From: Ignavibacteriota bacterium
GTDB lineage: Bacteria; Bacteroidota; Ignavibacteria; UBA10030
Assembly (NCBI GenBank): GCA_963727825.1
Contig: CAVSHO010000011.1
Location: 151,854 to 215,853 of the forward strand
DNA length: 64,000 bases
Direction of reading: 5' to 3'
Part shown: positions 6,911 through 37,500 of the stretch, one piece after another
How positions within the stretch are numbered: position 1 is the stretch's first letter
How the letters are laid out: every line of letters begins with the position of its first letter
The notes under the pieces: model-generated
Told to the model about the DNA's origin: nothing
Seen by the model: only the letters and a program-made list of their open reading frames with translations
The model's database searches: none
Translations under genes and position numbers: made by a program

Positions 6911-6914
6911 AAAA

Positions 6915-8270: not shown

Positions 8271-8290
8271 ATATATCCTTGGAATTGTTA

Positions 8291-8714: not shown

Positions 8715-8878
8715 TGTATAACTCCTAAAAATAGAAAACCGCTGAAGGGAAATTATGATGAAAAACCCTCAACGGTCTCTTATTTCCAATATGTAAGTAT
8801 TTTAGTATCATAATTTATTTTGATACAAGATACTTCCACGAGGAAGACTTAACTATTTTATAAATAAATTTAAGTTTT

Positions 8879-9481
8879 TTAAGTTTGTTTCCTCTTCTTT
8901 TTATATCCTGTTAATGAGGCGTATTGTCTCAGTTTATGATACATAGGATTTTTATCTTTGAATTCCTCTTTAGAAGGCATATCTGAAGGGCATAATTCTA
9001 ATCCAATATTATGTAGAACTACAGCGGGGATTGTTTTTCCCTTAACGAGATGTCTTTTTTCACATGCAGTCTTGAATTTATCTATAAAGTCGTCTTGATC
9101 TATTATATCAGAATTAGTTTTATTTTTGTTTGCATCATTTGACGATGGAACGGTAAGAATGCCGGATAATGAAGGTTCGATAGAAGACTGTATTTGTATT
9201 TTCTCATCTTCCTTACGTCGAAGTTTTTCAAAAGCGTATTCTTTTGCCCTTACTTCCGATAATTTTTCTTCATGTTCAAGTAATTTCAATTTATGTATCA
9301 ACTGCATTTTTTTCTCTTCAAGCTTAGGTATTTCTGGATTTACAAATGGACTTTGGCGCTTCTTTTCGATTTCATCATCTATTGCTGAAATCTTAGCCAG
9401 AATTGATTTATTTTCATCATCGCCATCCATAATTAAATCTTTACGATTGAAAATTAAATCATTAAATTTAATCTTTTTCAT
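8879..9481 (-). CDS. hypothetical charged, possibly coiled-coil protein
   Basis: 200-aa ORF rich in K/E heptad-like stretches (EEKKMQLIHKLKLLEHEEKLSEVRAKEYAFEKLRRKEDEK). No family recognised. Confidence 0.45.
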   Translation of the reverse strand: MKKIKFNDLIFNRKDLIMDGDDENKSILAKISAIDDEIEKKRQSPFVNPEIPKLEEKKMQLIHKLKLLEHEEKLSEVRAKEYAFEKLRRKEDEKIQIQSSIEPSLSGILTVPSSNDANKNKTNSDIIDQDDFIDKFKTACEKRHLVKGKTIPAVVLHNIGLELCPSDMPSKEEFKDKNPMYHKLRQYASLTGYKKKRKQT

Positions 9482-9484
9482 AGA

Positions 9485-10072
9485 CTAAAAATCTTTCTTC
9501 AAGTATTCGTTGGCTATTCTCATATTTTGATAATTAATTTTAAGCCCATAATTCACGCCTCCTGGAAATACTTCCAGAAATATTGCACAAGTGTCTTTCC
9601 CTTTATTGACAAAGCACCATTGAGCCTCAGTTGTCTCTCGATCAATAATATTCAATTCTTGGCAACTATCGCTTTTGAAAAGTGCAACGTCTACTTCTGG
9701 TTTCCCATATTTCTTGGAAATTGCGCTCTTAATCGACCACAACTTCCGGATAAAATATTCGCATTTAATATCGTCAAGAAATACCATGCCAGCAAAAAAA
9801 CTTTTGTTATGAAAATAAATTGCAAATTGATTGACTTTTTCACTCGCAAACATGCCGCCATAAAAAACCATTATTTCCTTATTGCTTTTTACAGTATCAA
9901 AATGGACACCGTCCCGTTTAAGCATTTTCGATTTAACAGTTTCTGAGTTGTCGCCCCACCTCAAATCAAGAAATCCATTAAGCGTCTTTCCTTGATCTTG
10001 TGCTACTAGTTCTTGATTAGTTAAGAATTCCCCCAAAAATAATATTGAAATTAGAAAAATAATCTTGTTCAT
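9485..10072 (-). CDS. hypothetical secreted protein
   Basis: Signal peptide MNKIIFLISILFLGEFLTNQELVAQ. It is tightly packed with the upstream ORF (4-nt gap). Confidence 0.5.
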   Translation of the reverse strand: MNKIIFLISILFLGEFLTNQELVAQDQGKTLNGFLDLRWGDNSETVKSKMLKRDGVHFDTVKSNKEIMVFYGGMFASEKVNQFAIYFHNKSFFAGMVFLDDIKCEYFIRKLWSIKSAISKKYGKPEVDVALFKSDSCQELNIIDRETTEAQWCFVNKGKDTCAIFLEVFPGGVNYGLKINYQNMRIANEYLKKDF

Positions 10073-18433: not shown

Positions 18434-18838
18434 CTACCATTCCTTCAGGCTCAATGTCACCGTTCTTCCTAAACGTATACCTGATATTACGGTGCAAGAA
18501 ATATTCTGATCTGTTTCGATCACTTTGCCATGTCCGATAACTACATTCTTTGGAATTCCATCAGATAGGTCAACTATACCAAAACTTGTACCTTTCTCGC
18601 TTGACACTTGAATTAAAAGCTTCGTCTTCGCCGGCATCGGTTTGTTAATGGATGCCATGATCTTCCAATTGTTGGAATAGGTCGACAGGTTATAGTGTTG
18701 CTCTACCATTTTACTGTGAAAAGCGAGGAATCGATTGGAACCATTGTTCACCGAAATGAAACCTAAGAGCCTTATTTCATATGCACCGAGTGATGCTATT
18801 GACAGGAAGAATACAAGCACTAATAAACATTTTCGCAT
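18434..18838 (-). CDS. small secreted protein, paralog 1 of 3 (family unknown, possibly minor-pilin-like)
   Basis: Signal peptide MRKCLLVLVFFLSIASLGAYE. The mature ~113 aa are about 90% identical to the ORFs at 19390 and 20090. It ends GRTVTLSLKEW. Confidence 0.7.
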   Translation of the reverse strand: MRKCLLVLVFFLSIASLGAYEIRLLGFISVNNGSNRFLAFHSKMVEQHYNLSTYSNNWKIMASINKPMPAKTKLLIQVSSEKGTSFGIVDLSDGIPKNVVIGHGKVIETDQNISCTVISGIRLGRTVTLSLKEW

Positions 18839-18861
18839 TTTTTAAATCCCTCCATTCATCA

Positions 18862-19032
18862 CTATATGTATTCCTGATAACCATTAAGATTGCCTGTGAT
18901 GGAAATATCGGAAATCGGCTTCATTTCAAATGTGACCGATTGTGTAATGCTATTATTACTACTTTGTGAGCGTAGTTTAACAGATGTTGTGACTACTAGT
19001 AGGAAAAGGACTATGACACTAAGTATTTTCAC
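18862..19032 (-). CDS. possible 56-aa ORF with signal peptide (GTG start), below the track cutoff; pilin-N-terminus-like fragment
   Basis: Own translation: (V/M)KILSVIVLFLLVVTTSVKLRSQSSNNSITQSVTFEMKPISDISITGNLNGYQEYI*. Its signal-peptide DNA is homologous to the 5' end of paralog 2. Confidence 0.25.
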   Translation of the reverse strand: MKILSVIVLFLLVVTTSVKLRSQSSNNSITQSVTFEMKPISDISITGNLNGYQEYI

Positions 19033-19233
19033 CTGTATTGATTCTAAAATTTCTAACGAATAAACAGGGGAAATGGTTCCTGTACTTAAGAATGTATGGT
19101 CTTTATATGCTCATAGATAATTGAACTTTTATAATTGAATTGCATGTTATAATGATACATTGTTGTGTCATCGAGCTTTTGGGGGTAACGTTTATCCTAT
19201 AATTAATGGGATTCTTAATAAAAAAAATCACAC

Positions 19234-19248
19234 TGGCATATAGATTGA
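19234..19248 (+). promoter_or_regulatory. orphan sigma54-type promoter copy TGGCAT-ATAGA-TTGA
   Basis: Identical 15-mer to 45171-45185. The surrounding ~140 nt (19120-19290) are paralogous to 45061-45220, including a degenerate palindrome half-site at 19146-19158. Confidence 0.4.
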
Positions 19249-19389
19249 CTAATATTCCTTGTTCCTATTTAATCAGTTAATAGGAATTAAATCGACGTTG
19301 GATGCAGAACAAATCTATGGAGACGTGTACAGAGATACGTAGTTTATAGAAGTCTTATTTCCTACTGCCATTATGCTGATATTTGAGTG

Positions 19390-19851
19390 CTACCATTCCT
19401 TCAGGCTCAATGTCACTGTTCTTCCTAAACATGTACCTGATATAACGGTGCAAGAAATATTCTGATCTGTTTCGACCACTTTACCATTTCCGATAACTAC
19501 ATTCTTTGGAATTCCATCAGATAGGTCAACTATACCAAAACTTGTACCTTTCTCGCTTGACACTTGAATTAAAAGCTTCGTCTTCGCCGGCATCGGTTCG
19601 TCAATGGATGCAATGATCTTCCAATTATTGGAATAGGTTGACAGGTTATAGTGTCGCACTACCCTTTTACTATGAAAAGCAAAGAATCGATTGGAACCAT
19701 TATTCACTGAAATGAAACCTAAAGGCTTTATTTCAAAAGCACCGAGTGATGCAATGGTTATCATTATAGCCAATAGGAAAAGGACTATGGTAATAGGACT
19801 TTTCAACCTCCACCCTGTGTAATCTTTAACAAAAAGATTTTTTATAGTCAA
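19390..19851 (-). CDS. small secreted protein, paralog 2 of 3 (different N-terminus)
   Basis: The C-terminal ~110 aa are near-identical to paralogs 1 and 3. The N-terminal MTIKNLFVKDYTGWRLKSPITIVLFLLAIMITIASLGAFE derives from DNA similar to 18990-19030. Confidence 0.65.
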   Translation of the reverse strand: MTIKNLFVKDYTGWRLKSPITIVLFLLAIMITIASLGAFEIKPLGFISVNNGSNRFFAFHSKRVVRHYNLSTYSNNWKIIASIDEPMPAKTKLLIQVSSEKGTSFGIVDLSDGIPKNVVIGNGKVVETDQNISCTVISGTCLGRTVTLSLKEW

Positions 19852-19885
19852 GTACTTTTTTATTTAAATTCTATTAAAACATCCT

Positions 19886-20003
19886 CGCAATCCAGCCCGC
19901 CTGCTGCGGGCAGGCGTACGCGGGAGTCTAATGTTCTAGATACCTTCTGACTTTGCCGGGACGGGAATGACGCCACAAACGGCGGGGTATTAAACCCGAA
20001 AAA
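19886..20003. repeat. GC-rich MITE/REP-like intergenic element ending in GGCGGGGTATTAAACCCGAAAAA
   Basis: The 23-mer at 19981-20003 is identical to 26644-26666. It contains a GGGAATGAC motif and nested hairpins (CCCGCCTGCTGCGGGCAGGCG). Confidence 0.55.
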
Positions 20004-20089
20004 GAACAAATCTATTGAGGCGTGTAAAGAGATAAATCGTAGTTTAGAGAAGTCTTATATCCTGCTGCCACTATGCTGATATTTGAGTG

Positions 20090-20494
20090 TTACCATTCCT
20101 TTAAGTTTAATGTCACCGTTCTTCCTAAACGTGTACCAGATATAACGGTGCAAGAAATATTCTGATCTGTTTCGACCACATTGCCATTTCCGATAACTAC
20201 ATTCTTTGGAGTCCCATCCGACAGGTCAACTATGCCAAGACTTGTACCTTTCTTGCTTGACACTTGAATTAAAAGCTTTGTTTTCGCCGGCATTGGCTCA
20301 TCAATGGATGCTATGATCTTCCAATTATTGGAATAGGTCGACAGGTTATAGTGCCGCTCCACCATTTTACTATGAAAAGCGAGGAATCGATTGGAACCAT
20401 TATTCACCGATATGAAACCTAAGGGCTTCATTTCATAAGCGCCGATCGATGCAATTGACACGAAGAATACAAGTGCTAATAGACATTGTCGCAT
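20090..20494 (-). CDS. small secreted protein, paralog 3 of 3
   Basis: The start is taken at MRQCLLALVFFVSIASIGAYE by homology with paralog 1. The track ORF extends to 20548. Confidence 0.7.
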   Translation of the reverse strand: MRQCLLALVFFVSIASIGAYEMKPLGFISVNNGSNRFLAFHSKMVERHYNLSTYSNNWKIIASIDEPMPAKTKLLIQVSSKKGTSLGIVDLSDGTPKNVVIGNGNVVETDQNISCTVISGTRLGRTVTLNLKEW

Positions 20495-21126
20495 TTTTTT
20501 AAATCCTAACTGGTATTTTGTATTTATATTTGAATGCATGGTTTTCATTTACGAAGTGAATAGTTCACTTTGGATGCCATACAGACCAACCCTGACTTGT
20601 TTTTATGGGTTCTGTTAAACTATTGGAAACAAAGGAGTTAGGGCGTAGACAAAAAACAGCAGATTTTATCTTAGGTGTAAAAAATTGAATTTTCTACAAT
20701 GGTGATTCTGAGAATACAATTGATATCTATGAAAGAATCAGGATGGTAACAAAATAGGTAGATTGAGTGGAGTTTATTGCTGAACAAAATTGGAATTGTG
20801 GCAGAAGTCCATTGCGTTTTCTCTGGCACTCAAAACGTCAAAAAACTGCTATAACGGAGTTATAATGCCAAACGAAGATATGTAGTAGGAGAGTAAAAAG
20901 ATTTATTCCCTACTATGTTCAATATCCAGACACTTGTGTGGTCATTCCGGCGTTCCGAAGGAATCACTTTGTGAAAAGCCGGAATCCAGTAAATGAATAC
21001 CAGCATACGTTGGCATAACAAACATCTCACTGCTTATAGCAAGGATTATTTATTTGGTAATTGCAAAAACCGGTGGAATATTATCGGACGAAGAGAAAAC
21101 TACTCATGTGTTTCATCTTCTGTTTT

Positions 21127-24100
21127 TCATTTTTCCTCGAGGAGATTGTTCAATGCTTTTAAGCGAGATTCTACATTACGAGCATGGACATTATCAGGAT
21201 ACTGTTCATTGAGAGTCTGATAAGTGTTTCGGGCTTTTTCTCGCTCACCTGTCTGCTCGTACGATCTGCCCAACATATAGTACGCATCAGGTTTTTTATT
21301 TGACGAATTAATAGCAATAACTTTTTGGAAATGCTCTATCGCGTTATTATAATCACGGGTAGCATAATTGCATTCACCCATCCAATACTCACAATTACCG
21401 ACGAGAGATGTTTCAATTCCCATCTCAATTAGACTGTTAAATTTCACAAATGCCTCTTCGTACTTCTTCTCGCGGAACAGTGAAACTGCATCGGCATATT
21501 CTTCACGAAGCAAGGAATCACTATTTGCCTTCGATTCTGGCTGCGGCTCGGTCTCAGCTATTTCTTTATGAAGAGAAGTATCGATACCTTCATTCTGAGT
21601 TGGAATTGCTATCTGTTCCGTATATTCTTTGAGAATGGTGGAATCAGTTTTTTCTCTCTTCCCAGGCATAGAAATAATGAACTTTCTGACGGTATCTCTG
21701 GCTATGACTTTTGTCGTATCCATTTCTTGAACAGGTTTTGTAGTTTTTAACAGGCTTTCGCATACAATGACAAGGTCTTCAACTATATCCCCTTGCTTCG
21801 AGTGATGCACAGTAACAGGAAGCGGCCCGTTCTGCTGGATTGCTTGAAGAAATTTAAGTTGCTCGGGATCGACCGCAAGTGTGTAGCTCCCCGGCGCTAC
21901 AGCCATTGCGTAGAATCCCCCATCAGCAAATGTGCGAAGCGTATCGCCGAAATTTCCTTTGGTGGCACGCATAATTACTCGGCTTCCACTGAGTGGAGTA
22001 CGCATTCCATCCCTTTCTAAATAGACATTTCCAGAAATTGTCCCGGCGCGATAGAATGGGATTTCAATTCTCCTCATTTGATTCGGATCAACGACAAAAG
22101 AGAACTTATCGATTGTCGGCACTAAATTAGGATCGATCTGTTGTCTGTCGACCTCTAAATTGTAACGGAAGTAACTTTCCAGCTGCGTTACCCGGATAAT
22201 ACTGTCCCTACCAAGCTCGATCTTGCCCATTCCGTCTACTTTAATTCCGTTCGCGGGAATGAGCTCATCTCCGGCATCGTACTTACCGTTATAGTTGTTA
22301 TCGACAAACAATAATACATCAATGCCCCCTTTACCGATCTGTTCGCGATTTGATAGGAACGCCGTGCCGCGGTCAAGTGCCACTGAGCCATAAATTGATT
22401 GGCGGGAAGTACTGCTTTCATGTGAGAAGAAATCGAAGACCGAAGATGTTCGCGTAAAATTTAGGTCCATAATCAGGCCAGCCTCAAACGAAGTAGTGTG
22501 GATTGCAAAGTTGCGCTCATATCCCAGATTGAATTGGAAGATCTGCATAAATGTTTTAGAAAATTGGAGGCTCGCGTCCTGAAGGGTCCTGGCTTGCAAA
22601 TCGTATATTGCCTGGCCACGCAGGAGAAATGCCTGCAGGAAATTTGGAAGAAACGATGAGCGAGGCAGCGTGTACATAAGCGTTGTTGTGAAGAGACCGT
22701 TACCGGCTAAGTTCAATGGACTTACATCAGTGCCAACTGTTACTTCACTATAGCTCATCAGCAGCTGCATATTGGTAAACTGGGTTGAAAGATCGAATCG
22801 AGTTGACAAATGTTTTCCCGACACAGCATCCGTGTAGTCCTCGGAGATCCTGAATCCGGTGCCGGCAGAGATAAACGCGAGAGGCAAGGAGAGAGCCAGG
22901 CTTGCATTCTGCTGCGGCGATGTGCCGATAAGCGTATCATTCAATACATATTTTGCGTACGAGGCAAACACGCCGGCGTTGGAGGCAAATAAAGCATTCG
23001 CATTCAAGAGGTAATACGCATTCGGCGCTACATTGACATTGAAAATGTACTGGGAAAACAAGCGGGATGAAAATCCAAAATTATATATCGGTTTCTGGAG
23101 ACCGGTATTATCGCTGCGCTCGAGGCCGCCGTTGAGCGTTAGCCAGTTCGCAGCGCCATAGAGTAAATTTGCATTTCCATAATACGCATTATTCGTCGAT
23201 ACTGTATTATTATCCACTTTTCCTGCTTGTACATTGTAACTAAGAATCCCCTTTGGTACAAACGAGAATGGTATCTGAATTTGTTTCTCACTAACATTTA
23301 TATCACCATATTTGGAAAACGTTTTAACTGTAATTTTCTCTGTTCCGTACGTAAGCGGAAATTGAAATCGGTAGTAGCCCGCCGCGTTAGCTTTCTGAAA
23401 AGCAACCAGGCGGTCATTAAGGTACAATTCAACCTCGGACTGGGGATCGGTGAATCCATCAACGACATAATTATCAAACATTACACGAGGTTCGACGGGC
23501 TCATTTGATAAGGCAATGCCGTTGACTCTCGGAATAAAATTGCTGCCGGTCGTAATCTGACCTGCCGTGAACGAGCTAAAATAGTTATTCCCCCGTACAA
23601 CGTAACGCCAGTGGAGGTCGTCTACAGAAGCGGACTGCCCCGTTGTACCAATCAGGCTACCCTGAATATCCCCTCCAGCCACTTCACCCCCGCCAGTGAG
23701 CGTATAATTCGTTCCCTGTGACGAGAATTTGTCTAACGAAGTAGATATGTTGTAGTCTAGGACGGAGCCACCGAGGACTGAACGATCGAGAGCATAACGC
23801 AGCGGATATTTCACCGACGGGCCGAAGTCGCTTCCTACTTCCGAGCGTGCCAACGCTGCCTTCTTGCGAACGAGCGCAGGTAATTCCTTGGACGTCTCGC
23901 CGATAATCTGAAGACGGTTAATATTGACTGTGCTGCTGATACCAAAGATTTCTTCGAATTTTTCAGTAGATATGTAAATATCCATCTCCCCTTTGAACAT
24001 CTCTTCCAGCGTCAGTACATATACTTTATCTCCAAGGGAAATCTCATGCCTGACCGGATTGATTGTCATTGGTATTGCAGAGGAGATATATGTCCCTTTA

Positions 24101-24384
24101 ATGATATATTGTCCCTCGATGGTATAATACACTTCAAAGATATTAAACAATTCTATAATAGGAAGATAGATTTTGTCATTCTTAATTGCGACTGATATGT
24201 TATAGCTGCCCAATTCCTTGAGAGTGTACCCAAATATTACTTCATCATATTGGGAGGCTTGCTGCGATAGCGATTGGGATGGAACAAGAAAATAGAATAA
24301 AAAAAATATACTAAGCGTTAATAGCAGATTTCGCACAACGCCATTATGGTTTTTTGATGGGATGAACTCACATTCCAGCGACAC
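21127..24384 (-). CDS. large outer-membrane usher-like protein with CarboxypepD_reg-like and TPR (YbgF/CpoB-like) domains in its C-terminal part
   Basis: Signal peptide. An N-terminal region resembles usher N-domains, and the segment SEVELYLNDRLVAFQKANAAGYYRFQFPLTYGTEKITVKTFSKYGDINVSEKQIQIPF is usher-like. A long middle part is beta-strand rich and aromatic-terminated. GTISGNVYLERDG...GSYTLAVDP looks like CarboxypepD_reg. The C-terminus has TPRs (YWMGECNYATRDYNNAIEHFQKVI..AYYMLGRSYEQTGEREKARNTYQ). Confidence 0.45.
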   Translation of the reverse strand: MSLECEFIPSKNHNGVVRNLLLTLSIFFLFYFLVPSQSLSQQASQYDEVIFGYTLKELGSYNISVAIKNDKIYLPIIELFNIFEVYYTIEGQYIIKGTYISSAIPMTINPVRHEISLGDKVYVLTLEEMFKGEMDIYISTEKFEEIFGISSTVNINRLQIIGETSKELPALVRKKAALARSEVGSDFGPSVKYPLRYALDRSVLGGSVLDYNISTSLDKFSSQGTNYTLTGGGEVAGGDIQGSLIGTTGQSASVDDLHWRYVVRGNNYFSSFTAGQITTGSNFIPRVNGIALSNEPVEPRVMFDNYVVDGFTDPQSEVELYLNDRLVAFQKANAAGYYRFQFPLTYGTEKITVKTFSKYGDINVSEKQIQIPFSFVPKGILSYNVQAGKVDNNTVSTNNAYYGNANLLYGAANWLTLNGGLERSDNTGLQKPIYNFGFSSRLFSQYIFNVNVAPNAYYLLNANALFASNAGVFASYAKYVLNDTLIGTSPQQNASLALSLPLAFISAGTGFRISEDYTDAVSGKHLSTRFDLSTQFTNMQLLMSYSEVTVGTDVSPLNLAGNGLFTTTLMYTLPRSSFLPNFLQAFLLRGQAIYDLQARTLQDASLQFSKTFMQIFQFNLGYERNFAIHTTSFEAGLIMDLNFTRTSSVFDFFSHESSTSRQSIYGSVALDRGTAFLSNREQIGKGGIDVLLFVDNNYNGKYDAGDELIPANGIKVDGMGKIELGRDSIIRVTQLESYFRYNLEVDRQQIDPNLVPTIDKFSFVVDPNQMRRIEIPFYRAGTISGNVYLERDGMRTPLSGSRVIMRATKGNFGDTLRTFADGGFYAMAVAPGSYTLAVDPEQLKFLQAIQQNGPLPVTVHHSKQGDIVEDLVIVCESLLKTTKPVQEMDTTKVIARDTVRKFIISMPGKREKTDSTILKEYTEQIAIPTQNEGIDTSLHKEIAETEPQPESKANSDSLLREEYADAVSLFREKKYEEAFVKFNSLIEMGIETSLVGNCEYWMGECNYATRDYNNAIEHFQKVIAINSSNKKPDAYYMLGRSYEQTGEREKARNTYQTLNEQYPDNVHARNVESRLKALNNLLEEK

Positions 24385-24641: not shown

Positions 24642-25490
24642 TCATTGCAAATTCACGGCCACTTCTTTAGTCACAGGTTGGGCTTGCAACAAATCTTCCG
24701 TCGCAACATCCGACCGCTTGGTTTCAAATGTCAGAAGAAGTTTATACTTACCCTTTGCCACTTTTGAAAGGTCAAGGTCTATTTTGTTTTTCATGCGAAA
24801 ATAAATTGATGCTGTCGCCTCGGACAAAGCTACCTTTTCATTTGCAGCAGAAAACAATTCTGCCTTCATACTGCCGACGTAAGGCGCGTTGCCAGTACGC
24901 TCCACATCCGCAACAACAGTTAGCTTATTGTCCTTCAATGCTGTATTAACATCGTGTACGATCAGGCCGGTAGAGACATTCCCTTTCCTGTAGAAAACAG
25001 GAAATATCTGGTCAAACTTGAAATTGACTTGTGCCGTGATTGCATCGGTTACTTTTTTCCCGATGTCGGGCGTTTTCTGAGCCGACGTTACCTTAACTCT
25101 GGAAAAAAAGAAAGCATCCTTAACAGAACTCTTCGTGCGCACTTGCAACCTAACAGTTTGTTCTTGTTTAGCATTCAAAATAAAACTTCTTGGATAAGCA
25201 CGGACCATTGGATTTAGCGCGTACGTTTTTGCAGCAACCGTATCGTTGTAATTCATTACGGCATTGCCCATACTGTCAGCATCGGTATATCCAAATGCAA
25301 AGCTTATGCTCACTTCTTGAGGAGCTGCAGAATTGTTTGTGATATACATATTCCCGATCCCGCTCTTGGAATCAATAAAGAGAATCGAGGGCGCTACGGT
25401 TACCTGGGCAAAAAGCATTTCTGTCCCCAGGAATATTATGGGTATCAGGAAGACAAATAATCTGGAACTGCAACACGACAGGCGTTTCAT
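24642..25490 (-). CDS. PapD-like periplasmic pilus chaperone (putative)
   Basis: Signal peptide, then VTVAPSILFIDSKSGIGNMYITNNSAAPQEVSISF and PRSFILNAKQEQTVRLQVR, which match the two conserved strands of chaperone-usher chaperones. 282 aa. It lies directly downstream of the pilin gene. Confidence 0.5.
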   Translation of the reverse strand: MKRLSCCSSRLFVFLIPIIFLGTEMLFAQVTVAPSILFIDSKSGIGNMYITNNSAAPQEVSISFAFGYTDADSMGNAVMNYNDTVAAKTYALNPMVRAYPRSFILNAKQEQTVRLQVRTKSSVKDAFFFSRVKVTSAQKTPDIGKKVTDAITAQVNFKFDQIFPVFYRKGNVSTGLIVHDVNTALKDNKLTVVADVERTGNAPYVGSMKAELFSAANEKVALSEATASIYFRMKNKIDLDLSKVAKGKYKLLLTFETKRSDVATEDLLQAQPVTKEVAVNLQ

Positions 25491-25656: not shown

Positions 25657-26169
25657 CTATTTGTATTCGACTGAAAAAGTCGATGCGCCTGTGAATGCAC
25701 CCAGATCCGTACCTGTTGTCATGGTTCCTCCAACCCACAGAGAATAATTGTTACTACTCGGTACCACGTCAGCACCAGAACTCAATAAACTAGCGTTTGC
25801 TAGTGAACTAGGGTCACCATAAACAGTGAGTGCCAACGACAAGGTTTTTCCTCCTGGACCGTTGAGCGTAATAGGTGATTGCCAACTTACTAAAACATCT
25901 GTATTTGCTCCAGTGATTGTAACCGTGCCAGCGGCAGCTTGGGAACCTAAATATGCGTTATTGGTTGAAGTTTTGGGATCGAGAACAACCGACCTGCTTG
26001 CCGGAACGTTACCAAACGCTATGTCGGTTTTAGCAATCGATAAAGCTGATATAACAGTCGCATTAGCATTGACATTGGTACTAACATTAGTCTGTGCCTG
26101 CATATTGCCGGCGACTAAAATCACCAGAATTGCTACTAAAAGGGTGGATGTAAAAATATTGCGTAACAT
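25657..26169 (-). CDS. DUF4402/SCPU-like pilin (putative major subunit)
   Basis: Signal peptide LVAILVILVAGNMQAQ. ISALSIAKTDIAFGNV..., GTVTITGANTDVLVSW, YSLWVGGTM and the C-terminal GAFTGASTFSVEYK fit the DUF4402 / spore-coat-U pilin pattern. GGAGG lies 5 nt before the ATG at 26169. Confidence 0.6.
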   Translation of the reverse strand: MLRNIFTSTLLVAILVILVAGNMQAQTNVSTNVNANATVISALSIAKTDIAFGNVPASRSVVLDPKTSTNNAYLGSQAAAGTVTITGANTDVLVSWQSPITLNGPGGKTLSLALTVYGDPSSLANASLLSSGADVVPSSNNYSLWVGGTMTTGTDLGAFTGASTFSVEYK

Positions 26170-26251
26170 ATGTACCTCCATTAAATTATTTGTTTATTTA
26201 TTGTGTATTAATTTTGTTTATTGCTTCTATTAATTTCTTTCTTTACTTATC

Positions 26252-26808: not shown

Positions 26809-27398
26809 TTACAAATACTCGAGAGTTATAATCGAGACAGGCAATTTACCATTATTACTTATTGTAGCTTTCTGATGATGGACTAAGAAAAATGTATACG
26901 CGACAAAAAGTGGGTCAATAGCTTTCATCGAGCGCTTTAAAAGATTATTATTTCTTAATCTAAATTGCACAAAATTTCCGTCTGTGATTATCGCCCGATT
27001 GAAATAAGTTGTCCCATCATTTAAATATCCGCAGTTAATTCGCATCGGATAGACACTCTGTTCATTCTTTTGAGACAATCCGGGCTTGTAAAACTCAGAA
27101 GAACAGTAATATTTTCATAAGCTGAGATAGAGAATCCAAAATCGAGGCTAACGATATCTTCATTACCAGGTTTTGCTGATGCCAATTCATTCAAATGTGT
27201 TATATCTTCTGCAAACAAAGTTCTCAAGTTATCATCCATCCTAGTAATATTTACAGATGGTAAAACATTTAGCTTGACCTTCATCAAAGGCGTTATTTGT
27301 GCCTGACTCTCTCCCGACAGCCCGACGATCAATGCCATTGCGACTACCGCAGTTCCGATTATGCGAGCATGGAAGCTATGCCATCTTTGATTCGTCAT
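26809..27398 (-). CDS. pilin-like secreted protein, split by one frameshift (27021-27078) in this assembly
   Basis: Two overlapping ORFs. Signal peptide IIGTAVVAMALIVGLSGESQAQ. The C-terminus ...GKLPVSIITLEYL resembles the neighbouring pilin C-termini. Probable start is MTNQRW at 27398. Confidence 0.45.
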
Positions 27399-27405
27399 AG
27401 CTATA

Positions 27406-28020
27406 TTATGGATATGTTGAGTAATTAACAGAGACACTTATTGTTCCAGTATAATATCCCGCATTCACATTGCCCACAGGCCCTAACTTTCCATACAGAA
27501 ATATATATGCCGTTGCAGAGGGAGCTGTATATCCACCGTGTGCAGGAGTTGGGGGCGGTGCAGGTACACCCGCAGTCCTTCGAAGCATCGGAAGTGTTAT
27601 TGCGGAAAATCCTGCAGGGACTTCAACAGCACTCGTCTTTGCCGTGGCCGCATCGCTACTTCCAAGATTTGAATAGGCGAAGTTACAGGTGAACGGTATC
27701 TGGCTGCTCGCTCCTGCAGTCATGTACATAGGAGCGGATATTGTTACCGTAATATCCCTCGTCGCATCACCTACAATTGTAATATACTGAGTTTCGTTGT
27801 CGGTCAATGTGATAGTGACTGTTGCACTGCTGTTGCTAACAATTTCCGGTTGCTTATCATTAAAGTTCAAAGTAGCACCATTACTTGCGACCAGAGAAAT
27901 GCCCACAGAAGTTGTATAGGCACCAAAATTTATTTTTTGTGCAACTCCAAAGCTGATCACAAACACACTCAATAGTATCAGCATTCCCCATCGTTTCAGT
28001 ATGTGTGTAAGCGAGATCAT
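27406..28020 (-). CDS. DUF4402/SCPU-like pilin subunit (204 aa)
   Basis: Signal peptide; LNFNDKQPEIV, TVTITL and C-terminal AGYYTGTISVSVNYSTYP (the G-x-Y-x-G-T-x-x-V-x-V-x-Y pilin tail). Confidence 0.5.
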   Translation of the reverse strand: MISLTHILKRWGMLILLSVFVISFGVAQKINFGAYTTSVGISLVASNGATLNFNDKQPEIVSNSSATVTITLTDNETQYITIVGDATRDITVTISAPMYMTAGASSQIPFTCNFAYSNLGSSDAATAKTSAVEVPAGFSAITLPMLRRTAGVPAPPPTPAHGGYTAPSATAYIFLYGKLGPVGNVNAGYYTGTISVSVNYSTYP

Positions 28021-28520
28021 AAAATGTACTCTACATCGATTTTCAGTTCCATTGTGTAATTACCGGGCATAATGTCTTCAAGGCCTGAAAGTTGTCCTCC
28101 CACCCACAGATAATACTCTCCCCTATCACTCAGCTTGACTTCATTCTGCGTGAGAAGGATCGATTCCTTCTGGATATTATAAGTATTTCCGCTGACATTG
28201 TAGGTGAAGAAAAGTTGCGATTGGCCGTTTTCGTGCCGCAGAATCGATTGTTTTTCATTTGTAATCCGCACGAGACTGTTCGGAGAGCCGACGATTTTTA
28301 TCATTCCAGAATGCAAGTCTCTTTGTGGGTCAATATTGAGATCTGTCGGCGAGAGATTGCCAACTTCAAATTCCAGGTCCTTCATCACAATCAGATCTAC
28401 ATTGCCAACAACATTTGCGGAGGCAGTGATCCTTGCCACAACCTGATCCGTATTTTGTGCTTCTGCAATGTACCCGATAAGCAAGCTGATCGCAAGTAAA
28501 TATGTCAAATATTTTATCAT
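28017..28520 (-). CDS. DUF4402/SCPU-like pilin subunit (167 aa)
   Basis: Signal peptide LLAISLLIGYIAEAQ; ITASANVVGNVDLIVMKDLEFEVGNL, YYLWVGGQL and C-terminal PGNYTMELKIDVEYIL. There is a 4-nt overlap with the giant gene stop. Confidence 0.55.
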   Translation of the reverse strand: MIKYLTYLLAISLLIGYIAEAQNTDQVVARITASANVVGNVDLIVMKDLEFEVGNLSPTDLNIDPQRDLHSGMIKIVGSPNSLVRITNEKQSILRHENGQSQLFFTYNVSGNTYNIQKESILLTQNEVKLSDRGEYYLWVGGQLSGLEDIMPGNYTMELKIDVEYIL

Positions 28521-31500
28521 TTAAGTACAACCATTTTTTTAGTTTGTGTTTTTTCTGCCGCGGTCATCCTGCAGAAATATACGCCGCTGGCAACATTTGA
28601 TGCATTCCACACCACGAGATGATTCCCGGCTGAGTATTCCTGATCAGTCACAGTGGCGACTTGCTGGCCCAGGATATTGAATACCCGGATCGTTACGCGC
28701 GTTTGTGCTGGAATTGAAAAAGTAATGTTCGTCGTCGGGTTAAACGGGTTCGGATAGTTCTGTGCCAGTTGAGGAGTAGTCGGAAAATATCCTGACAAAC
28801 TATTGTTTGCCGAGACAACCAGACGGAAACGGGACTCTGAAGCGCTGCTCTTCGCTAATTTGGCAGCGGGAACTGTCTGCACGACAGGCTGTGGTAATGC
28901 ATGTAATGATTGACGATTCGATGCAACACCAGATCCCTTTTGTAAAAGACTACTGCTCGACGATATCAAGTCGGCTGGTGTAGTGTACTGGAATGTCAGG
29001 TCGCCCGCTTCTATCATTGAGGCCGCTGTCCCGGAGACATCGTCCATAAGAAAGATGTTCCAGCCAACAGGAAGCTGTCCGTTCAAATTCCAACTAAGTG
29101 TAAATGAGCCGTTAAACGGTTGACCACCAACTGTCCCGCCAACGTACAACGGAAGTGTGAACGGTTGAACAAAACCTGTATCGGGTAAATTCTGGATTTG
29201 CATAGCGGGCTGGCCCGTTCCGGCAACAGAGTAAAGTATTAAATAATTATCAGAGAGCGGAACCAAACTGAACGCATCGTACGGATCGTATGTTATCTTT
29301 CCGCTGGGGCTGAACATCAAGTACGCTTGCGTTTGAAGCCCATTAGCTGAGAGCTCTAATTCGAGAACAGGCGCCGAATCATTGATACCCAAACTTTTCT
29401 TGTCGGATGTGTTTTTTGCAAGTGAGGCCGGCTTCGCGATGCTCGTGCTTTTCTTCCCGGCAGAATCCGGCGAGACAGATGCCAACGTGCCTTTACCTGC
29501 AGATTTCTTTCCGAGGAAGTTGCCCCCTGTCGCTTTCACTCTATTGTCGCATTTCAGTGAGGGACTGGCGGCGTTTGCTTTCACCCAGAATGCTTGAAAT
29601 GGTGTTATCAATCCACCTGTAATATTTCCCGTTGAGCCATTCCAATATTTGTAGTTGCTCGTGGCTGGATCCCAAATATAAATTGTTCCATCAATGTTCG
29701 TCTTTGTCCACCCTGACCCCGCATTCCAATTGATCGTGGAAGGAGTCGGGTTGCCGACCAGGTTCCAACCTCCATCGATAGAGTCGATATCTGTAAAAGT
29801 TTTGCTTTTTGATGTATCATTGGAACCTACCGGCGTCGCAGTGACGCCAAAATCGAATGCCGAGGTTAGCAGATTCTCCGTACCTGTGGCAGTCATCGTT
29901 AGCGGAAGGACATCGCTGTAATTGCTGGCTATATCAGGTCTGAGCGCACCATTAAATACATAGTACATGTATCCCCTTCCCAACTTAACGGCAACGGAAT
30001 CCATTCTCCACGCCTGCAACGATGTGCCCTGACTCGTTTCATCCCACCACAGCAGATTGGGTTGCAGAGAGGGATAACTCGATCCCGTAAAGCCCTGTGT
30101 GACGAAGGGTGCTGCAAACATTGAACTGACTGTTACGCTATCGGGAGCGGCGAGCATGCGCCATCCTTCGGTTCCGGTTATCGTGTACATCACCTGAAGT
30201 GTAGGTGCACTGCTGCTGAGGTTGATATAGTTCGATCCTTCATTGATAATTATTTTTCCTGCGGAAATAGAAGCGCCGGATTCGATTTTGAGATTTGAAC
30301 CGGAACCGATATATACATTGTTGGTCACACTAAAACTATTATTATTATCAAACGATCCACCATTGTCTACTATTAAACTCGTAATTGTTACACTGGTGTT
30401 TAAAGTGTCTGCAAAATTATTGCTGATATGTACCGTATCAATTGACATCGGCACCCTATAATTCCAGGTAGCAGCGTTACTCCAATCTCCGCTTGCAATT
30501 GAGGTAATTAGAAGAGGCATAATATTTATGCCACCTATTGTAAAGAAATGATTATCGAGGTTTACGAGTGTCGAAGTGGCAACCGTACCCGAAGTCTGTC
30601 CATTGTCAGTAACAACCTGACCGACAGCATTCCAAGGAATAAGCCATTCGACCACCCTTGTAAGAGCGCGTGTTGATGCCGAGCTGCTCATTCCTGTGTA
30701 TTGGTCCCAGCTTAAAACAACATTTGCGCTTCCACCTGATGGACCAATAATATTCCAATATTCATTATTCACAACTGATTGTAATGGAGATACCATCTGT
30801 GTAGTGTTATATCCAGCGGTTGTAGGATCCTTATCAAAAAATTGTGCCGTCCAAGTTTGTGTTCCTGAAGTAGAAGTGCTATTTACTGAAACATATCCAA
30901 TCCGGTTTCGGCTTGAGGAATTTGCATCTCCAACCGGAAATTGGAACGATGAGCCATTAATTATTTTCTTACTTAGCGGCCCGTTTACAAATGAATTATC
31001 GCTTCCACCAACAACAGCACTTGAACTTGTATTGGTAATAGTCAGGATATTGTTGGCAATGTTATTAAAATTAATGTTTCCCAATGTCAGCAGAAGCTGA
31101 TCGCTTATATCAACAGTTCCGGTATTAATAGTTAGTCCCGCAGCATTATTTATTTCGAGGTCATAGAATGTCTCTTTCATAGAATTACCAGACATCAAAA
31201 TACTTTGTGCTGCCGAACCGCTGAAATGCACAGCACCTGTTCCAGCAGTAAAGCCAGCAATACTCGTGTTTTGATCAATCCAGTTTCCAAGAACGAAAAG
31301 GTCTTTATTGTATAGAGTATTATCCAATCTGCTGCCATCAGAAATTGTTATGTTGCCATTTATCTTTGTATCAACGCTACTGATGTACTTTTTGCCGGTT
31401 CCTGAGAATATTACTTGTTGATAAGGTTTATTTATATTTCCCGGATTTAAAGGCATTGTGCCATCAGTGTTCCCATAAAACTCAACAGTACTTGGTAAGT

Positions 31501-34500
31501 TCGCAAGAAATAAATCGTACGATCCGCCTGGGAATATGAATATAGCACTGCCAGTAGGTGACATACGTATTTTTCCTGTACCTGATACCTGCCCGATATT
31601 ATTAGATACCGTATTCGTTGCATCGAGCACTCCTTCGATATCTACTGAAGATGCAAGCGCTCCATTAACGCTAATAGTTACAGTGTGGGGAGCATTTATA
31701 ACAACCGAGTGGCCATTTGGGACAAAGGAAGGAGACCAAACTGTTGCATCATTCCAATTTCCTGATTTTGTGCTATATAATATCGGTAATGAAATAAATT
31801 GATCTCCAATCGTATACGATCCATCTAAGAGCGAAGTGCTGCTAAAAGAAAATGTTGGAGAACTTATTGTTCCTGGTGTAACAGTTGTCCATGCGGCTGT
31901 AGAATTATCGCACCGTTCAATATTCGCAGGACTTCCAGTTACATCAGCGGGGATGTACGTGTACGAATGCGTTACATTATAAGTTGATGGCGAAAAGCCT
32001 GTTGTTACCACCTTCCAATAGTAATTCAAATAATTTGAATAGTTTGCAGGATTAATTGATGGGTGTAAATCATCTATTGGAATGACGTTTATGGTTGCTC
32101 CTGCCGCATTAGTATTGGCGGTAAAGTTATATGTGCAGGGAGTGTATTTTCCATTAGCACCTATAGGATAAGTAAACGATGAAGCGCCGTTCGGGAATAT
32201 CTTTGTAACTCCTATATCACCTAATACACCATTAAGAATAACATGGTTTGTTCCACTGGCACCTACAATTATAACGCTTTGCCCAAAAGTCAAAGAATAA
32301 TTATCGATGTATAAATTACCATTAGTAAACTTGAGCTGACCGTTAATCGTCGAATTGTCGGTCATATTAACGCCATGCCCGCTGTTGTTGATTTCAATGT
32401 TACCGAAAATTCCGCTTCCGCTGCCTGTCATCCCCTGGTTGGCTGTTCCCTTAAAAATCATTCCACCGCTTGTTGAAGAACTGTAGTGAGTAGCGTTGTT
32501 GTTAACATTATTCAATAAGGTTATTGTATTTCCATTGTCGTTCAACGTGCCGGAGCTTAATGTCAAATCACCGTTAATGGTGATATTGCTGCTGCTTAAT
32601 GATATGCTATGCCCGGCAGCAGTGGAGACATCCAAATTAGCGAAGTTAGTAATATTAGAAGGAGAAGTTGTGCCGGTTATGGTTTGGTCAGTGCTTCCTA
32701 CAAAACCGGTGGATTGCGTAAGCACCTGAGTTTGATAACCACCGACATTGAGTCCAACAGTAGATGTTGTATTGTTATTTATCAAATTCCCGCCGATAGT
32801 GACATTAAGTCCATTAGTATTATAATAACTTGATGTTCCACCGATAGTCAAACTTCCGACAAGAGTTAATGGATATATTTCCTGTATTGCCGATGATTTT
32901 GTCGTCGCTTCGAGTGTAAGGTTTCCTATAGAACATGAAGATTGGAAATAGAACAATGTACTAGCAGGTGTAACACCCGAATATCCAAACTGTATCGTGC
33001 CACCGGTGACATTTTCAATGTCGGGATCTAAATACAAATCATAAGGAGAGCTATTATTGATATCATTGGCAATTATGATCGTGCCATTGCTCACGGTAAA
33101 CTTGCTTCCGCCATTTAGTACTTCAAACACGGCTCTTGACGTACTAGCATTTTTACCACCTATGGTAACGGTCCCACCTGTTTGTGTATAATTCAATGAA
33201 CCAGAGGTGGTTCCTGTTCCGCGCCTTATTTGTGAATAGACATTGAGAGATCCGCCTGAGATAATAATTTCAGGAGTGCCTGCCGAAGCATAGACAGTAT
33301 TAAAAGCATTGGCAGATGCTGATGCTATAGCTGGGCCAATATTGACTGCTCCTGCAATTATTTCCAACCGGCCAACAAGAGATAAATCAGCTGCCGCAGC
33401 ACCAGTGGCTATATTAAATGTACCTCCATTCGCAGAAAGACATGCCGTGCTCGGTATTGAGAAACCGCCTACAGAAAGAGGCATTGTCACGTTTGAAGTT
33501 AATCTGAACGTCCCGTTCTGCAAATTAAGACCGCCACCGCCCATTTGAAAACCTGTAGGATCGACATTAACATTTAAGATAGAATCTTTTGATGTGCCTT
33601 TATTGACTGTTATGCCGTATAAGCGTGTTCGTGTCGGTGTAGAAGTACTGGTAAGAGATTTACTTAATGAACCTGTAAAAATAAGAGTACAATAATAATT
33701 ATCATTAGTCGGATAGTTCGAGTCTAAATCAAATGTTCCGTTATTAATTATGTTTCCATAAACTGTTAAAGTGTTTGCTACTGAATTACCACCATTTCTA
33801 ACTTGCAGCACTCCACCGGACGCAATGTTAATATCGTTATCGGCAATTACGTACTCGGCAAGATTGTTCTGGTATTGTAATATTCCGTACTGATTTATAT
33901 TGATATTACCTTTTACTTCTATAGTTGTTGAGCTTGCACCGGCGTTAATCTGCGTTATGCAATTTGATGTGCCGCCCCCGGATGAACATCCCGCTGTCAA
34001 ATTATTATAAATCGTCAAGTTTGAATTAGGCAAAATTATATTCGATGCATTATAAGGTGAAGTAATAAGATTATAGTACCCGGTAATATTCGCTGTACCT
34101 CCACCGGGCAAAGTATACGTTGTCGGTAATGTAAGTGTCCCTGCGGCAGCCTGATAATATTCCACCGTCCCACCGGAAGGTCCTAAGAAATTTCCCCAGT
34201 CGCCAGCAGGGAAATATGTTGAGCTGGCAATTCTCAATGTTCCACTACCCGTAGAAATTGAGCCGAAACTATGTCCATTTATAATTCCTAAATCGAGTGT
34301 TGAACCGGATTCAATAGTTAAGCTGCTTGAAGAAGCTGCTACTGGAGTTGTAACTGTGTAAGGACTGCAAATGATTACCAGAGTACCAGCGGTAGGTGTG
34401 CCACCACCACCAATGCCGCCTCTTGTTGTGGACCAAGTATTAGCATTATTCCAAGGACCACTCACAACACTATATAAAGTAGGGATGGCACCAAATGCTG

Positions 34501-37500
34501 TAGCAGGATCACCGGCTGTATATTCTCCGTCAGCAATACTTGTATTATAGGTGACCTGGTTTGTAGTGGTATTCACTCCACTTGTAGTTAATGAACTCCA
34601 GCTTGAACCATTATAAAGGGCAGGAACATAATTTCCTTCAGTGCCGGCTACAAAATAATTAGATGCGGCATAATCGTAATAATAAATATTGATAACCGAA
34701 CTGGCCGGAATACCTGTGAAGCCAGTACTGGTTGCCTTCCAGTAGCAAGTTAAAGCATTATTAGAACCTTGCGCTAACGGATGCCTTCCATTAACAGGGT
34801 GTGTTGTTACCGTTCCATAGGCAGTTGGCGCAGTAGTGAATTGTATCGAGTGCGGCATATAATAGTATGTTGCATTCGTATAAAAACCAAACGGAAAAAC
34901 AAAAGCCAATGTATTGGCATAAGTTTTACTTACCCCTCCGTCGGAAAGCAAGCCGCTGGTTTGAATCATCTTGTTATTGTTAAAAGTCGTACCAATATTT
35001 ACATCGGAATAAACCATAGAATTTGCGCCTAATGCAAGGCGATAGCTGCCAATATTAAGTATATTCCACACGCCTGTTGTTGTACCAGCCAATCTTAAAT
35101 TACCTGTAACAGCCATATTAGCTGTAGCAGTAACAGAACCGCCCGTTTTATTTAATGTCAGGTTATTGAAAATTCCTGCTCCGTTTCCACTCAGCGTTTG
35201 CGCTGCGGTACCAGTCAGAATTATAGCGCCTGTACTGACTCGGCTTATGTGTGTTCCGCTATTAATAATATTTCCGTATACAGTGACAGTTTCGCCGCTG
35301 TCATTCAGAACCGAGTTCTGATCTATAAAGAGCGCACCGTTCACAATCACATTATTATTAATAATTGAGGTAAGGGATGAGTTTGTAATAGTAAGATTGT
35401 TCAGTCCACCTGTAATGGTTCCTACATTATTGAAAGCTTGAGCGCCTGTACTGTTAAATGTTGTTGTCGAAGTCGTACTAGGCGTGTACGTGCCTCCTGA
35501 CGAAATAGTAAAATTATGTCCCACGTTCAGACTAATAGTACTTGTGTTCAAGTTTAATACAGAAAGGTTGCCAATGGTTAGATCATGCAAGACACTAAGG
35601 CTCGAACCTGGTGTATTCCATTGAACAGTTGTAGTCCCTGTTCCAGTCCGGTTTGATATATTCACATTATAAAATGGGACTGTTGAATTTGCCGTGTAGA
35701 CGGTAGCAGAGCTTGGTACGTTAATATTTATTGTTCCACCGGTAACATTATAATTTCCTGCTTGAGATTCAATATCCATAATTTGGAAATCTGTAGTACC
35801 ACCAGAAAAAGTATTATTCGTAAAATTGATTGTTCCCCCGCTCATAGTAAAGGAAGAATTTACATTACTAAGTCCAAACATCGGCCCTGCATGGTTTTCT
35901 CCCAGTAATTGGAAGTTCGCTGTTCCACCTGTTTGTATATAACTCATCTGATTAGTGCCACCTGTGGAAGTCCATACCTGACTAGCAACCAATGTGCCGG
36001 TTCCTTCGATCATAATTACAGGTGTTCCTAATGTTCCTAAAACCATACCGGCTGCATCGCCCATAGAAAACGAACCCCCACTTAGACGCAATGTGCCGTA
36101 CAATGTAGCCGCCTGATAGCCGGTTCCATTAACGCCTGATAAAGTGGTTGAAACAGTAGCGCCATTAACCCATAATTCAGCAGTAGGTATAATATTAAAG
36201 TCTTGTCCGCCTTCTGTTAGAGATGGGACGTTAATATTTGCATCGAGCTTCAGCGTACCATAATGAATAAAGAGCGCCTTATAATATGCTCCATATCCAA
36301 AGCCCTCTGGTTGACCATCAAACTGGTTATTACCCTGGTTATTGGGAGCGTAAAGAGCAAAATTACTCGTACTGGAAGAATTGACTTCTAATGTATAGGT
36401 CTTGTCTGTTCCTTTTTCTACGATAAGTCTGAAAAAGTCTGTTGTTCCATTACAAGTGACAGTATTGTTTGTTGCACCATGGAAGAAAACCTGAACATCG
36501 CCACAATTTGTTCCGCCCCAGGCCGTCGTTGTAAGTATATAGTATGCACTACTGTCCGGTGATGGCAACCCTGTAAAACGAATAGAACCATTATTCACCA
36601 AATTGCCGTATAGTGATAATGTGTGGACACCAGAATAAGTTACGGGAAGTGCCGGCACCGCAGTCGGATTAGGAATTCCGTGCGCAGTTGCAAAATTATT
36701 TACCCTGACATTGCATCCGGCATCGACAGTAAAATCTCCATAGACAGTCATGTTGATAAGGCTATCTGAAGGTGTCAAATTGCCAAAATAGAGTGTCTGG
36801 GTTCCCGACGAATAATTTTTTACACTCAAATTTCCATTAATAGTATATGTTATAGGGCCAGCGTTGTTGCTAAAGAAGTAAGAACTGATTGCACTCGTAG
36901 TATTATTTGAAATTATCAAATTGTTGTACGTAAAGGGAGACGGAGTAGCGGGGGGGATGCTGACACCATTAAGATTGTAGAACTCTATCGTTCCACCGCC
37001 GCTTGCAACAAAACTCGTATAAGTTCCACCGGGGAAAGTATTAGAACTAAGCTTTATTTTCCCTTGTCCTGATACCGTTCCAAAATTATGTCCGGTAGTG
37101 GACCCAATGTCAAGAATGCCCCCTGAATTAACTGTGAGTGTATTTACTTGTTTAGTATTCGCGCTGATAGAAATTGTTCGGCCATTGAGAATGGTAACGA
37201 TATCTGAATTTGCTGGAACACCGGAATTTATCAACGTTGTACCTGAAGGATCTGATGTCCAGGAAGATGCATTGTTCCAATCGCCCGATTGATACGAATA
37301 ATATGTATTCGAAGTTGACGGTGCAGAAGAGCCGGCGGTCCACTTTCCTGAAATCGATGCAGCCGATGCACCGGATGTGTCTGTTCCAAATGGATTAGCA
37401 GCAAGTGCTGTGTGTGTGCCAGGTGCTGATACCCAGGATGATCCGCCGTTATACCAGGTATCATATAGCGATCGTCCACCGGGCGCTTCGGCATTATTAT

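Follow-up and report, generated by a model that had tools for sequence, protein, structure and literature searches.

A predicted divergent usher of Bacteroidota carries a YbgF-like TPR domain in a variable C-terminal slot

Introduction

Ushers are the textbook self-contained assembly pores of the outer membrane. The Bacteroidota are best known for type V pili. Here we describe an usher-like gene from an Ignavibacteriota bacterium, encoded on the minus strand of a 64,000-nucleotide stretch of contig CAVSHO010000011.1 (assembly GCA_963727825.1, positions 151,854 to 215,853), which is referred to throughout as the window. The closest described counterparts of its product are FimD and PapC, the ushers of the E. 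coli type 1 and P pili (Pfam family PF00577). The window usher has the same predicted domain order and topology, and a gene for a PapD-fold chaperone lies adjacent. However, it shares only ∼10–14% sequence identity with FimD and PapC, its C-terminal sandwiches resemble folds of the SdrD_B and CarboxypepD_reg type, and the associated subunits are DUF4402-like. In addition, it continues into a linker and a tetratricopeptide repeat (TPR) tail, exchanged in relatives for SPOR, LysM or OmpA domains, while FimD and PapC have no such tail.

The archaic (sigma) pili, represented by Csu of Acinetobacter baumannii and CupE of Pseudomonas aeruginosa, share with the window an operon order of small subunits, chaperone and usher, and CsuC is among the structural matches of the window chaperone. 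In contrast, profile searches of Protein Data Bank (PDB) sequences gave no sequence-level link between the subunits or chaperone and the solved Csu proteins, and the window-type systems occur in Bacteroidota, beside a giant protein sorted by the type IX secretion system (T9SS). In a literature search, no tailed usher turned out to be described for Csu or CupE, and neither a paper on DUF4402 systems nor anything relevant on chaperone-usher systems in Bacteroidota was found.

The tail itself most resembles CpoB/YbgF (E. coli; Xanthomonas structure 2xev): both have three TPRs and a capping helix, and the tail covers almost the whole of the family model TIGR02795. The TPR domain of CpoB binds domain II of TolA and PBP1B (PMC7391070, PMC4458516). 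Unlike CpoB, the window TPR domain has no trimeric coiled coil, is tethered to an outer-membrane pore rather than free in the periplasm, is encoded outside any tol-pal operon and scores below the family cut-off. A periplasmic module that ties an outer-membrane machine to the wall is known from the type II secretion system (T2SS), where OutB links the outer-membrane secretin to peptidoglycan (PMC9239104), as well as from PorE of the T9SS (TPR plus OmpA_C), whose NCBIfam model matches the window protein weakly. The anchor in the GspB/OutB and PorE systems is a separate protein or belongs to another pore family, whereas the putative anchor of the window family is fused to the usher C-terminus and swapped among at least five module types. 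No usher with a cell-wall-binding or TPR/Tol-Pal-like module was found described in the literature search. We propose, with a probability of roughly 0.6, that the tail is a swappable periplasmic tether between the usher and the cell wall or machinery of the envelope.

Results

The longest open reading frame (ORF) runs without interruption on the minus strand from a GTG at 24384 to a stop at 21127 (1085 codons), while the plus-strand translation of 21127–24384 contains many stops. The interval given by an earlier sequence-only reading of this DNA was therefore correct, and the strand is minus. An identical database protein, P0002, has 1069 aa and starts at a GTG 16 codons downstream; its N-terminus, MRNLLLTLSIFFLFYFLVPSQSLSQQ (MRNLLL...), is that of a typical signal peptide. 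Residues are numbered here in the 1069-aa form, and adding 16 gives the 1085-aa long form. An AlphaFold2 (AF2) model was built on 83 family members (mean predicted local distance difference test, pLDDT, 83.5), with strands taken from its DSSP list. The features of the gene and its predicted product are as follows.

21127..24336, minus strand: usher-like gene, 1069 aa from the GTG at 24336, stop codon at 21127-21129; identical database protein P0002
24265..24336, minus strand: putative signal peptide, residues ∼1-24, MRNLLLTLSIFFLFYFLVPSQSLS; from the sequence and a model helix at 2-16 followed by a low-confidence stretch, cleavage site inferred
23893..24246, minus strand: predicted periplasmic N-terminal domain, residues 31-148; from the AF2 model and full-length Foldseek alignments to FimD/PapC
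22372..23775, minus strand: predicted 24-strand beta-barrel, residues 188-655; from the DSSP strand list and Foldseek matches to PapC/FimD pores
23263..23490, minus strand: predicted plug, residues ∼283-358, six strands between barrel strands 6 and 7; from the AF2 model
22048..22332, minus strand: predicted first C-terminal beta-sandwich at the CTD1 position, residues 669-763; from the AF2 model and a DNNxNGxYD motif
21754..22044, minus strand: predicted second C-terminal beta-sandwich at the CTD2 position, residues 765-861; from the AF2 model, PF13620 below threshold
21532..21753, minus strand: linker, residues 862-935, 74 aa; predicted disordered, pLDDT <50 at 866-936
21130..21531, minus strand: YbgF/CpoB-type TPR domain, residues 936-1069; from profile matches, the AF2 model and Foldseek

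The ∼860-aa conserved core is, on this model, a canonical usher with an N-terminal domain, a plugged 24-strand barrel and two C-terminal sandwiches. Barrel strands 1–6 fall at residues 188–277 and strands 7–24 at 365–655. When the model was compared with the PDB using Foldseek, the 18 best matches were all to FimD or PapC (E 1e-30 to 4e-14), and the alignments to the full-length proteins spanned 750–938 columns. Matches to the PapC/FimD translocation pores 2vqi, 3ohn and 3fip had E values of 4e-17 to 4e-14, and SdrD B, TIE and pilin sandwich proteins were also among the whole-model matches. Membership of the TonB-dependent or BamA families was rejected, since porins and LptD appeared only at ∼E 1e-6 or weaker, far behind the ushers. 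Therefore, the 24 strands, the plug after strand 6 and the two C-terminal sandwiches, together with the Foldseek ranking, identify the predicted barrel as that of an usher. This agrees with the sequence-only reading, which had taken this part for an usher or beta-barrel with a plug-like segment and had asked whether a plugged 24-strand barrel would be predicted. Its estimate that the barrel extends to about residue 740 was too long: the predicted barrel ends at ∼655 and is followed by the sandwiches at 669–763 and 765–861.

Both sandwiches belong to the core. In the first, residues D679, N681 and G684 are invariant or almost so across the family, and the corresponding region of relatives gives weak SdrD_B-like matches. 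The second is a CarboxypepD_reg-like domain that holds many of the invariant residues of the family; its match to PF13620 (24.0 bits) lies below the gathering score of 32.3, and the match recurs in relatives at 17.6–28.1 bits. This domain is highly conserved and is present in all family members, including those without a tail, and therefore it is part of the core, at the position of the usher CTD2. Its assignment to the C-terminal extension, as first suggested, was rejected on these grounds. Likewise, the contrast originally drawn with canonical ushers holds for the TPR tail but not for the two small Ig-like domains in which canonical ushers were said to end, as two sandwiches follow the barrel here too.

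At the sequence level, the Pfam Usher family (PF00577) matched the window protein below threshold (18.7 bits against a cut-off of 27.1) over a stretch of 54 residues, and relatives scored 25.5–26.8 bits in the same register; these weak matches lie on the plug or just after it. PapC_N and PapC_C were undetected by Pfam in the window protein. When PDB sequences were searched with a profile of the usher alignment, no usher was found, and equivalent searches with the chaperone and subunit alignments found no chaperone and no pilin. Because these searches were empty, it is the predicted folds and the Pfam matches below threshold that connect these proteins to known families.

The extension proper consists, on the model, of the linker and a YbgF-like TPR domain. 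The T/E/K/I-rich linker contains 13 acidic and 11 basic residues, and its sequence is weakly conserved within the window's clade. The low-complexity stretch noted earlier is thus confirmed, but it is 74 aa long rather than ∼100 aa and, with a net charge of −2, is hardly acidic. The TPR domain is modelled at pLDDT >90 as seven helices (936–1068) that form three repeats and a capping helix, where three or four repeats had been counted from the sequence. Several lines of evidence support its likeness to YbgF/CpoB, which had also been recognised at that stage. TIGR02795 (tol_pal_ybgF, NCBIfam) matched with 81.6 bits over profile positions 4–119 of 119, below its cut-off of 90.1, and a TPR_6 match (Pfam, E 2.6e-13) lies at the C-terminal end. 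In searches of the tail against PDB sequences, CpoB (6g5s) was found at E 4e-10 and Xanthomonas YbgF (2xev) at E 5.6e-9. Foldseek superposed the domain on 2xev with a target-normalised template modelling (TM) score of 0.87–0.89, a root-mean-square deviation of 1.6–1.7 Å and 28% identity. The CpoB model NF008068 scored 53.9 bits against a cut-off of 383 and aligned only at profile positions 141–263, its C-terminal half; the N-terminal trimerising coiled coil of CpoB is absent, and the disordered, usher-attached linker precedes the TPR domain instead.

FimD and PapC have both termini in the periplasm, and the tail of the window protein is predicted to lie there as well because the number of barrel strands is even. 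Fully extended, the linker would reach ∼25 nm (estimated at ∼0.36 nm per residue), ample to arrive at the wall layer. The TPR domain diverges faster than the core, with 24–36% identity in clade members whose core is 65–76% identical. When the YbgF-like tails of the clade (P0011–P0021) were compared with the window TPR (936–1069), they formed two groups, 58–87% or 24–36% identical, while core identity changed little between the groups (71–86% versus 65–76%). This split suggests tail replacement or very fast evolution.

We considered whether the fusion might stem from an error of assembly or annotation, or be an appendix in decay, with the TPR really belonging to a separate YbgF-like gene. Two relatives from metagenome-assembled genomes have frame breaks, at L001:2834-2837 inside CTD2 and at L007:10814-10837 inside the first TPR, and one 216-aa tail-only ORF occurs on another contig. 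However, these frame breaks, which could be either sequencing errors or pseudogenes, lie away from the domain boundary, and the ORF is unbroken here. Core and TPR are encoded in one ORF in >15 independently assembled relatives (NCBI, ENA, JGI and Logan assemblies). A 5.3-kb contig from a peat run (depth 267), from a ∼93.5% identical strain, spans 21111–22800 without indels, covering CTD1, CTD2, the linker and the TPR domain to beyond the stop. Only four short proteins were returned when free-standing relatives of the TPR tail were sought; of three examined, two were usher fragments at contig ends and the third lay on contig L081. The confident model of the TPR domain also speaks against this reading. 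The artefact reading is effectively refuted, and the protein is a true fusion with no frameshift, as the sequence-only reading had supposed.

Contig L081 (ENA ERZ25039480 contig_38237, 66.2 kb) holds, at 5970-7767, a 1.8-kb copy matching window 19722–21841. The copy comprises the 3′ end of the usher gene (last CTD2 strand, linker and most of the TPR domain) and one small downstream gene, with 317 bp deleted at a 6-bp overlap. Identity is 99.84% over the 631 bp of the usher part and 96.7% over the other 1173 bp. Phage-like genes surround it, including ThyX with an endonuclease insert, DNA ligase, tRNA nucleotidyltransferase and PHROG 'moron' membrane proteins. Three origins are conceivable: host DNA may have been captured by a phage or mobile element, the segment may have been duplicated, or the contig may be chimeric.

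To place the tail in its family context, 1.84 billion cluster representatives were searched in full with HMMER. This gave 590 proteins (50%-identity clusters) at E ≤1e-30, nearly all of which align only to query residues ∼20–875. Tails were surveyed in the best 150 of the 590 representatives, 134 of which have a complete core, and were typed with custom hidden Markov models seeded on Pfam-verified stretches. No tail (<60 aa) was present in 55 of the 134 (41%), so that ∼60% of the representatives are tailed. The commonest tail consists of one to six SPOR repeats (51/134), followed by a short two-TPR module (14), LysM (5) and OmpA (3). Single representatives carry a short TPR with OmpA, OmpA with a YbgF-like TPR (P0194) or the YbgF-like TPR alone, the last being the window's own cluster; three have other tails. 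The YbgF-like tail is therefore rare (2/134 representative clusters). Pfam confirmed the assignments in sampled tails, with SPOR at up to 64.5 bits, LysM at 24.9 and 26.6 bits (cut-off 20.9) and OmpA at 87 bits.

When tail state was mapped onto a quick FastTree tree of the core, at least 40 changes were required (minimum possible 8; shuffled mean 62.7), and presence or absence of a tail required at least 25. Thus, tails are inherited over short ranges, yet they have often been gained, lost or exchanged. The same is seen close to the window: P0019 and P0022, 71–72% identical overall and members of its clade, have SPOR in place of the TPR domain, P0005 (82% identical overall) has a TPR followed by a SPOR-like domain that scores just below the cut-off (19.5 bits), and several clade members have two tandem YbgF-like modules. 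The C-terminus of these ushers is a modular slot in which three unrelated peptidoglycan-binding folds and two types of TPR occupy the same position behind a flexible linker, on the predicted periplasmic face of the usher, and this pattern suggests that the slot provides a connection from the pore to the wall or to proteins of the envelope. We also asked whether tail-less ushers receive a wall-binding module in trans from a downstream gene, but this was rejected, as none was present within 8 kb.

SPOR domains are septal-targeting modules. The tail might serve mainly as an address label, with SPOR (through denuded septal glycans) and the YbgF-like TPR (through Tol-Pal) sending the usher to division sites, so that it would sit at the septum or new pole and give polar pili, rather than bracing the pore. 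Of the 79 tailed representatives, 51 carry SPOR, more than any other tail type; a close relative (P0005) combines TPR and SPOR-like domains, and CpoB and Tol are both septal in the late stages of division (PMC4458516). On the other hand, the LysM and OmpA tails bind the wall with no known septal preference. We regard an address label as unlikely to be the main role of the tail, although it overlaps with the tether reading and sequence alone does not separate the two.

Six ushers (P0191, P0202, P0222, P0233, P0239 and P0240) have N-terminal extensions of 171–683 aa, composed of ∼100-aa repeats with a conserved W...Y.W..RA.N..GW pattern, possibly of an immunoglobulin (Ig)- or fibronectin type III (FN3)-like fold. 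These would be a second variable end of the usher.

To examine the genomic context, 80 related loci were taken from species-representative genomes (242 relatives in all) of Bacteroidales, Prolixibacteraceae, Lentimicrobiaceae, Saprospiraceae, Cytophagales (among them Algoriphagus, Cecembia and Belliella) and Balneola. Among cultivable species, Cecembia lonarensis LW9 (L071) has an usher with a SPOR tail, tailed ushers are also found in Balneola/Fodinibius species, and tail-less ones occur in Algoriphagus. In the window, genes on the same strand occur, from upstream to downstream, in the order 5074-aa protein, four small genes, 282-aa gene, usher, three tandem copies of a small gene and a radical SAM gene. 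The genes of the putative pilus operon upstream of the usher are listed below.

24642..25490, minus strand: PapD-fold periplasmic chaperone gene, 282 aa, directly upstream of the usher; predicted from an AF2 model (pLDDT 90.1) and Foldseek
25657-26181, 27021-27437, 27406-28020 and 28017-28520, minus strand: four small putative pilus subunit genes, DUF4402-like, from weak Pfam matches

The 282-aa protein has no Pfam match, but Foldseek matched its model to SafB, EcpB, Caf1M, FimC, YadV, CfaA and CsuC (E 2e-8 to 2e-7). Weak DUF4402 matches were found by Pfam in two of the four small genes. Of the 70 loci with 1 kb or more of upstream flank, 69 have a chaperone homologue as the gene immediately before the usher, in the same orientation. 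Where the flank reaches 4.2 kb or more (53 loci), three or more DUF4402-like genes are encoded upstream on the usher strand in all but one (52). Therefore, the usher belongs to a conserved subunit–chaperone–usher operon.

The presence of a separate chaperone bears on the idea that the TPR tail is an assembly co-factor, which would take over or pass on chaperone–subunit complexes or unfolded subunits, or partly replace the chaperone. TPR domains bind peptides and extended chains, and the NCBIfam models of LcrH/SycD, which are TPR chaperones of type III secretion, match the tail weakly (E 8e-10), with scores far under the cut-off. In addition, it adjoins CTD2, the domain that binds chaperone–subunit complexes in classical ushers. 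However, the gene directly upstream encodes a dedicated PapD-fold chaperone, the slot holds SPOR, LysM or OmpA wall binders in most tailed relatives and is empty in 41%, and a 74-aa disordered linker fits a reach away from the pore rather than work at it. We consider a co-factor role improbable; replacement of a chaperone, as first envisaged, is contradicted by the 69 of 70 loci with the upstream gene and by the tail-less members, and recruitment of one finds no support in them either.

One tail type is associated with particular neighbours. The ushers with short-TPR tails in loci L065, L072, L073, L078 and L079 are exactly those, 5 of 81, that are followed by a motor-like cluster of four genes, for a FliG-domain protein, for a short-TPR paralogue that stands alone, and for one protein each of the MotA/ExbB family and of MotB-like type, the latter with an OmpA domain (sometimes with SPOR). 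This co-occurrence in 5/5 cases ties at least one TPR tail type to specific partner machinery. It also raises the possibility that the C-terminal slot serves as an adaptor through which these Bacteroidota ushers couple the outer-membrane pilus pore to proton-driven inner-membrane motors of the MotA/TolQ/ExbB type, so that assembly, gating or movement is energised or regulated. Short-TPR tails would pair with the FliG-like/MotAB-like cluster and the YbgF-like TPR of the window with TolA–TolQR; the CpoB TPR domain does bind TolA, which is driven by TolQR (PMC7391070), and none of the 76 other loci has the cluster. Against this, there are no such motor genes near the window usher, the gene association concerns the other TPR type, and most tails are plain wall binders. 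Moreover, chaperone-usher assembly requires no energy input at the outer membrane. Motor coupling is thus a poor bet, both for the window protein and for the slot in general. If true, chaperone-usher assembly in this branch would be mechanically or energetically tied to the inner membrane.

Downstream of the usher, genes differ among relatives L001, L004, L007 and L003, and the YbgF-like tail has no conserved neighbour there. In the window, three tandem, near-identical genes for secreted proteins of 134–153 aa (18434–20548, minus strand) lie directly downstream. One copy is present in the closest relative, L001, and another on the phage-like contig L081; none was found in the loci of other relatives, and there was no match to a phage record. 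These small proteins were rejected as conserved partners of the TPR domain, since among usher loci they occur only in the window and L001. Directly upstream of the pilus genes, 28517–43741 (minus strand) encodes the 5074-aa protein, which ends in a T9SS sorting domain, and a 308-aa ORF (43621–44547, minus strand) overlaps the start of its gene. Elsewhere in the window, three ORFs that Pfam does not match flank a DnaB_C-type helicase-like gene (6915–8270), and the region (6299–10072, minus strand) may be a small mobile or replicative element.

Discussion

Our data suggest that the product of this gene is an outer-membrane usher that serves a divergent pilus system of the chaperone-usher type, found in Bacteroidota/Ignavibacteria-like bacteria. 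Its tail fills a variable adaptor slot that is empty in some relatives and holds SPOR, LysM, OmpA or other TPR modules in the rest. From the contents of this slot we infer that the function of the tail is periplasmic tethering, i.e. that it anchors or positions the pilus assembly pore relative to the wall and the envelope-spanning machinery. Of the roles that had been proposed from sequence, tethering to cell-envelope machinery is consequently the one we favour. In relatives the modules themselves may bind peptidoglycan, while in the window protein tethering would occur through protein–protein binding by the TPR domain. Such a tether would brace the pilus base or set its location, and would take no part in subunit chaperoning. 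Since the CpoB TPR domain binds TolA domain II and PBP1B, a Tol-Pal or peptidoglycan-synthesis-associated protein is the most plausible partner by analogy, and also the most specific guess available, but it is only a guess.

Several observations weigh against tethering. TPRs are generic protein-binding modules, and likeness to YbgF is no proof of binding to TolA or PBP; the domain lacks the coiled coil of CpoB and its TIGR02795 score is under the cut-off. The window contains no tol, pal, mot or exb gene. The TPR domain evolves much faster than the core, which would fit a changing partner or a relaxed role. Because 41% of the family function without a tail, the tail is accessory, and the structural evidence is entirely predicted.

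The family described here is a large and previously unrecognised group of Bacteroidota ushers, with 590 clusters at 50% identity and members in 242 species-representative genomes, and is too divergent for Pfam to call. In about 60% of its members the C-terminus is formed by an exchangeable periplasmic module of the SPOR, LysM, OmpA or TPR type. This leads to the testable idea that pilus bases may be anchored or positioned via the cell wall, for which the family offers a natural domain-swap set, and it bears on how Bacteroidota make chaperone-usher-type fibres.

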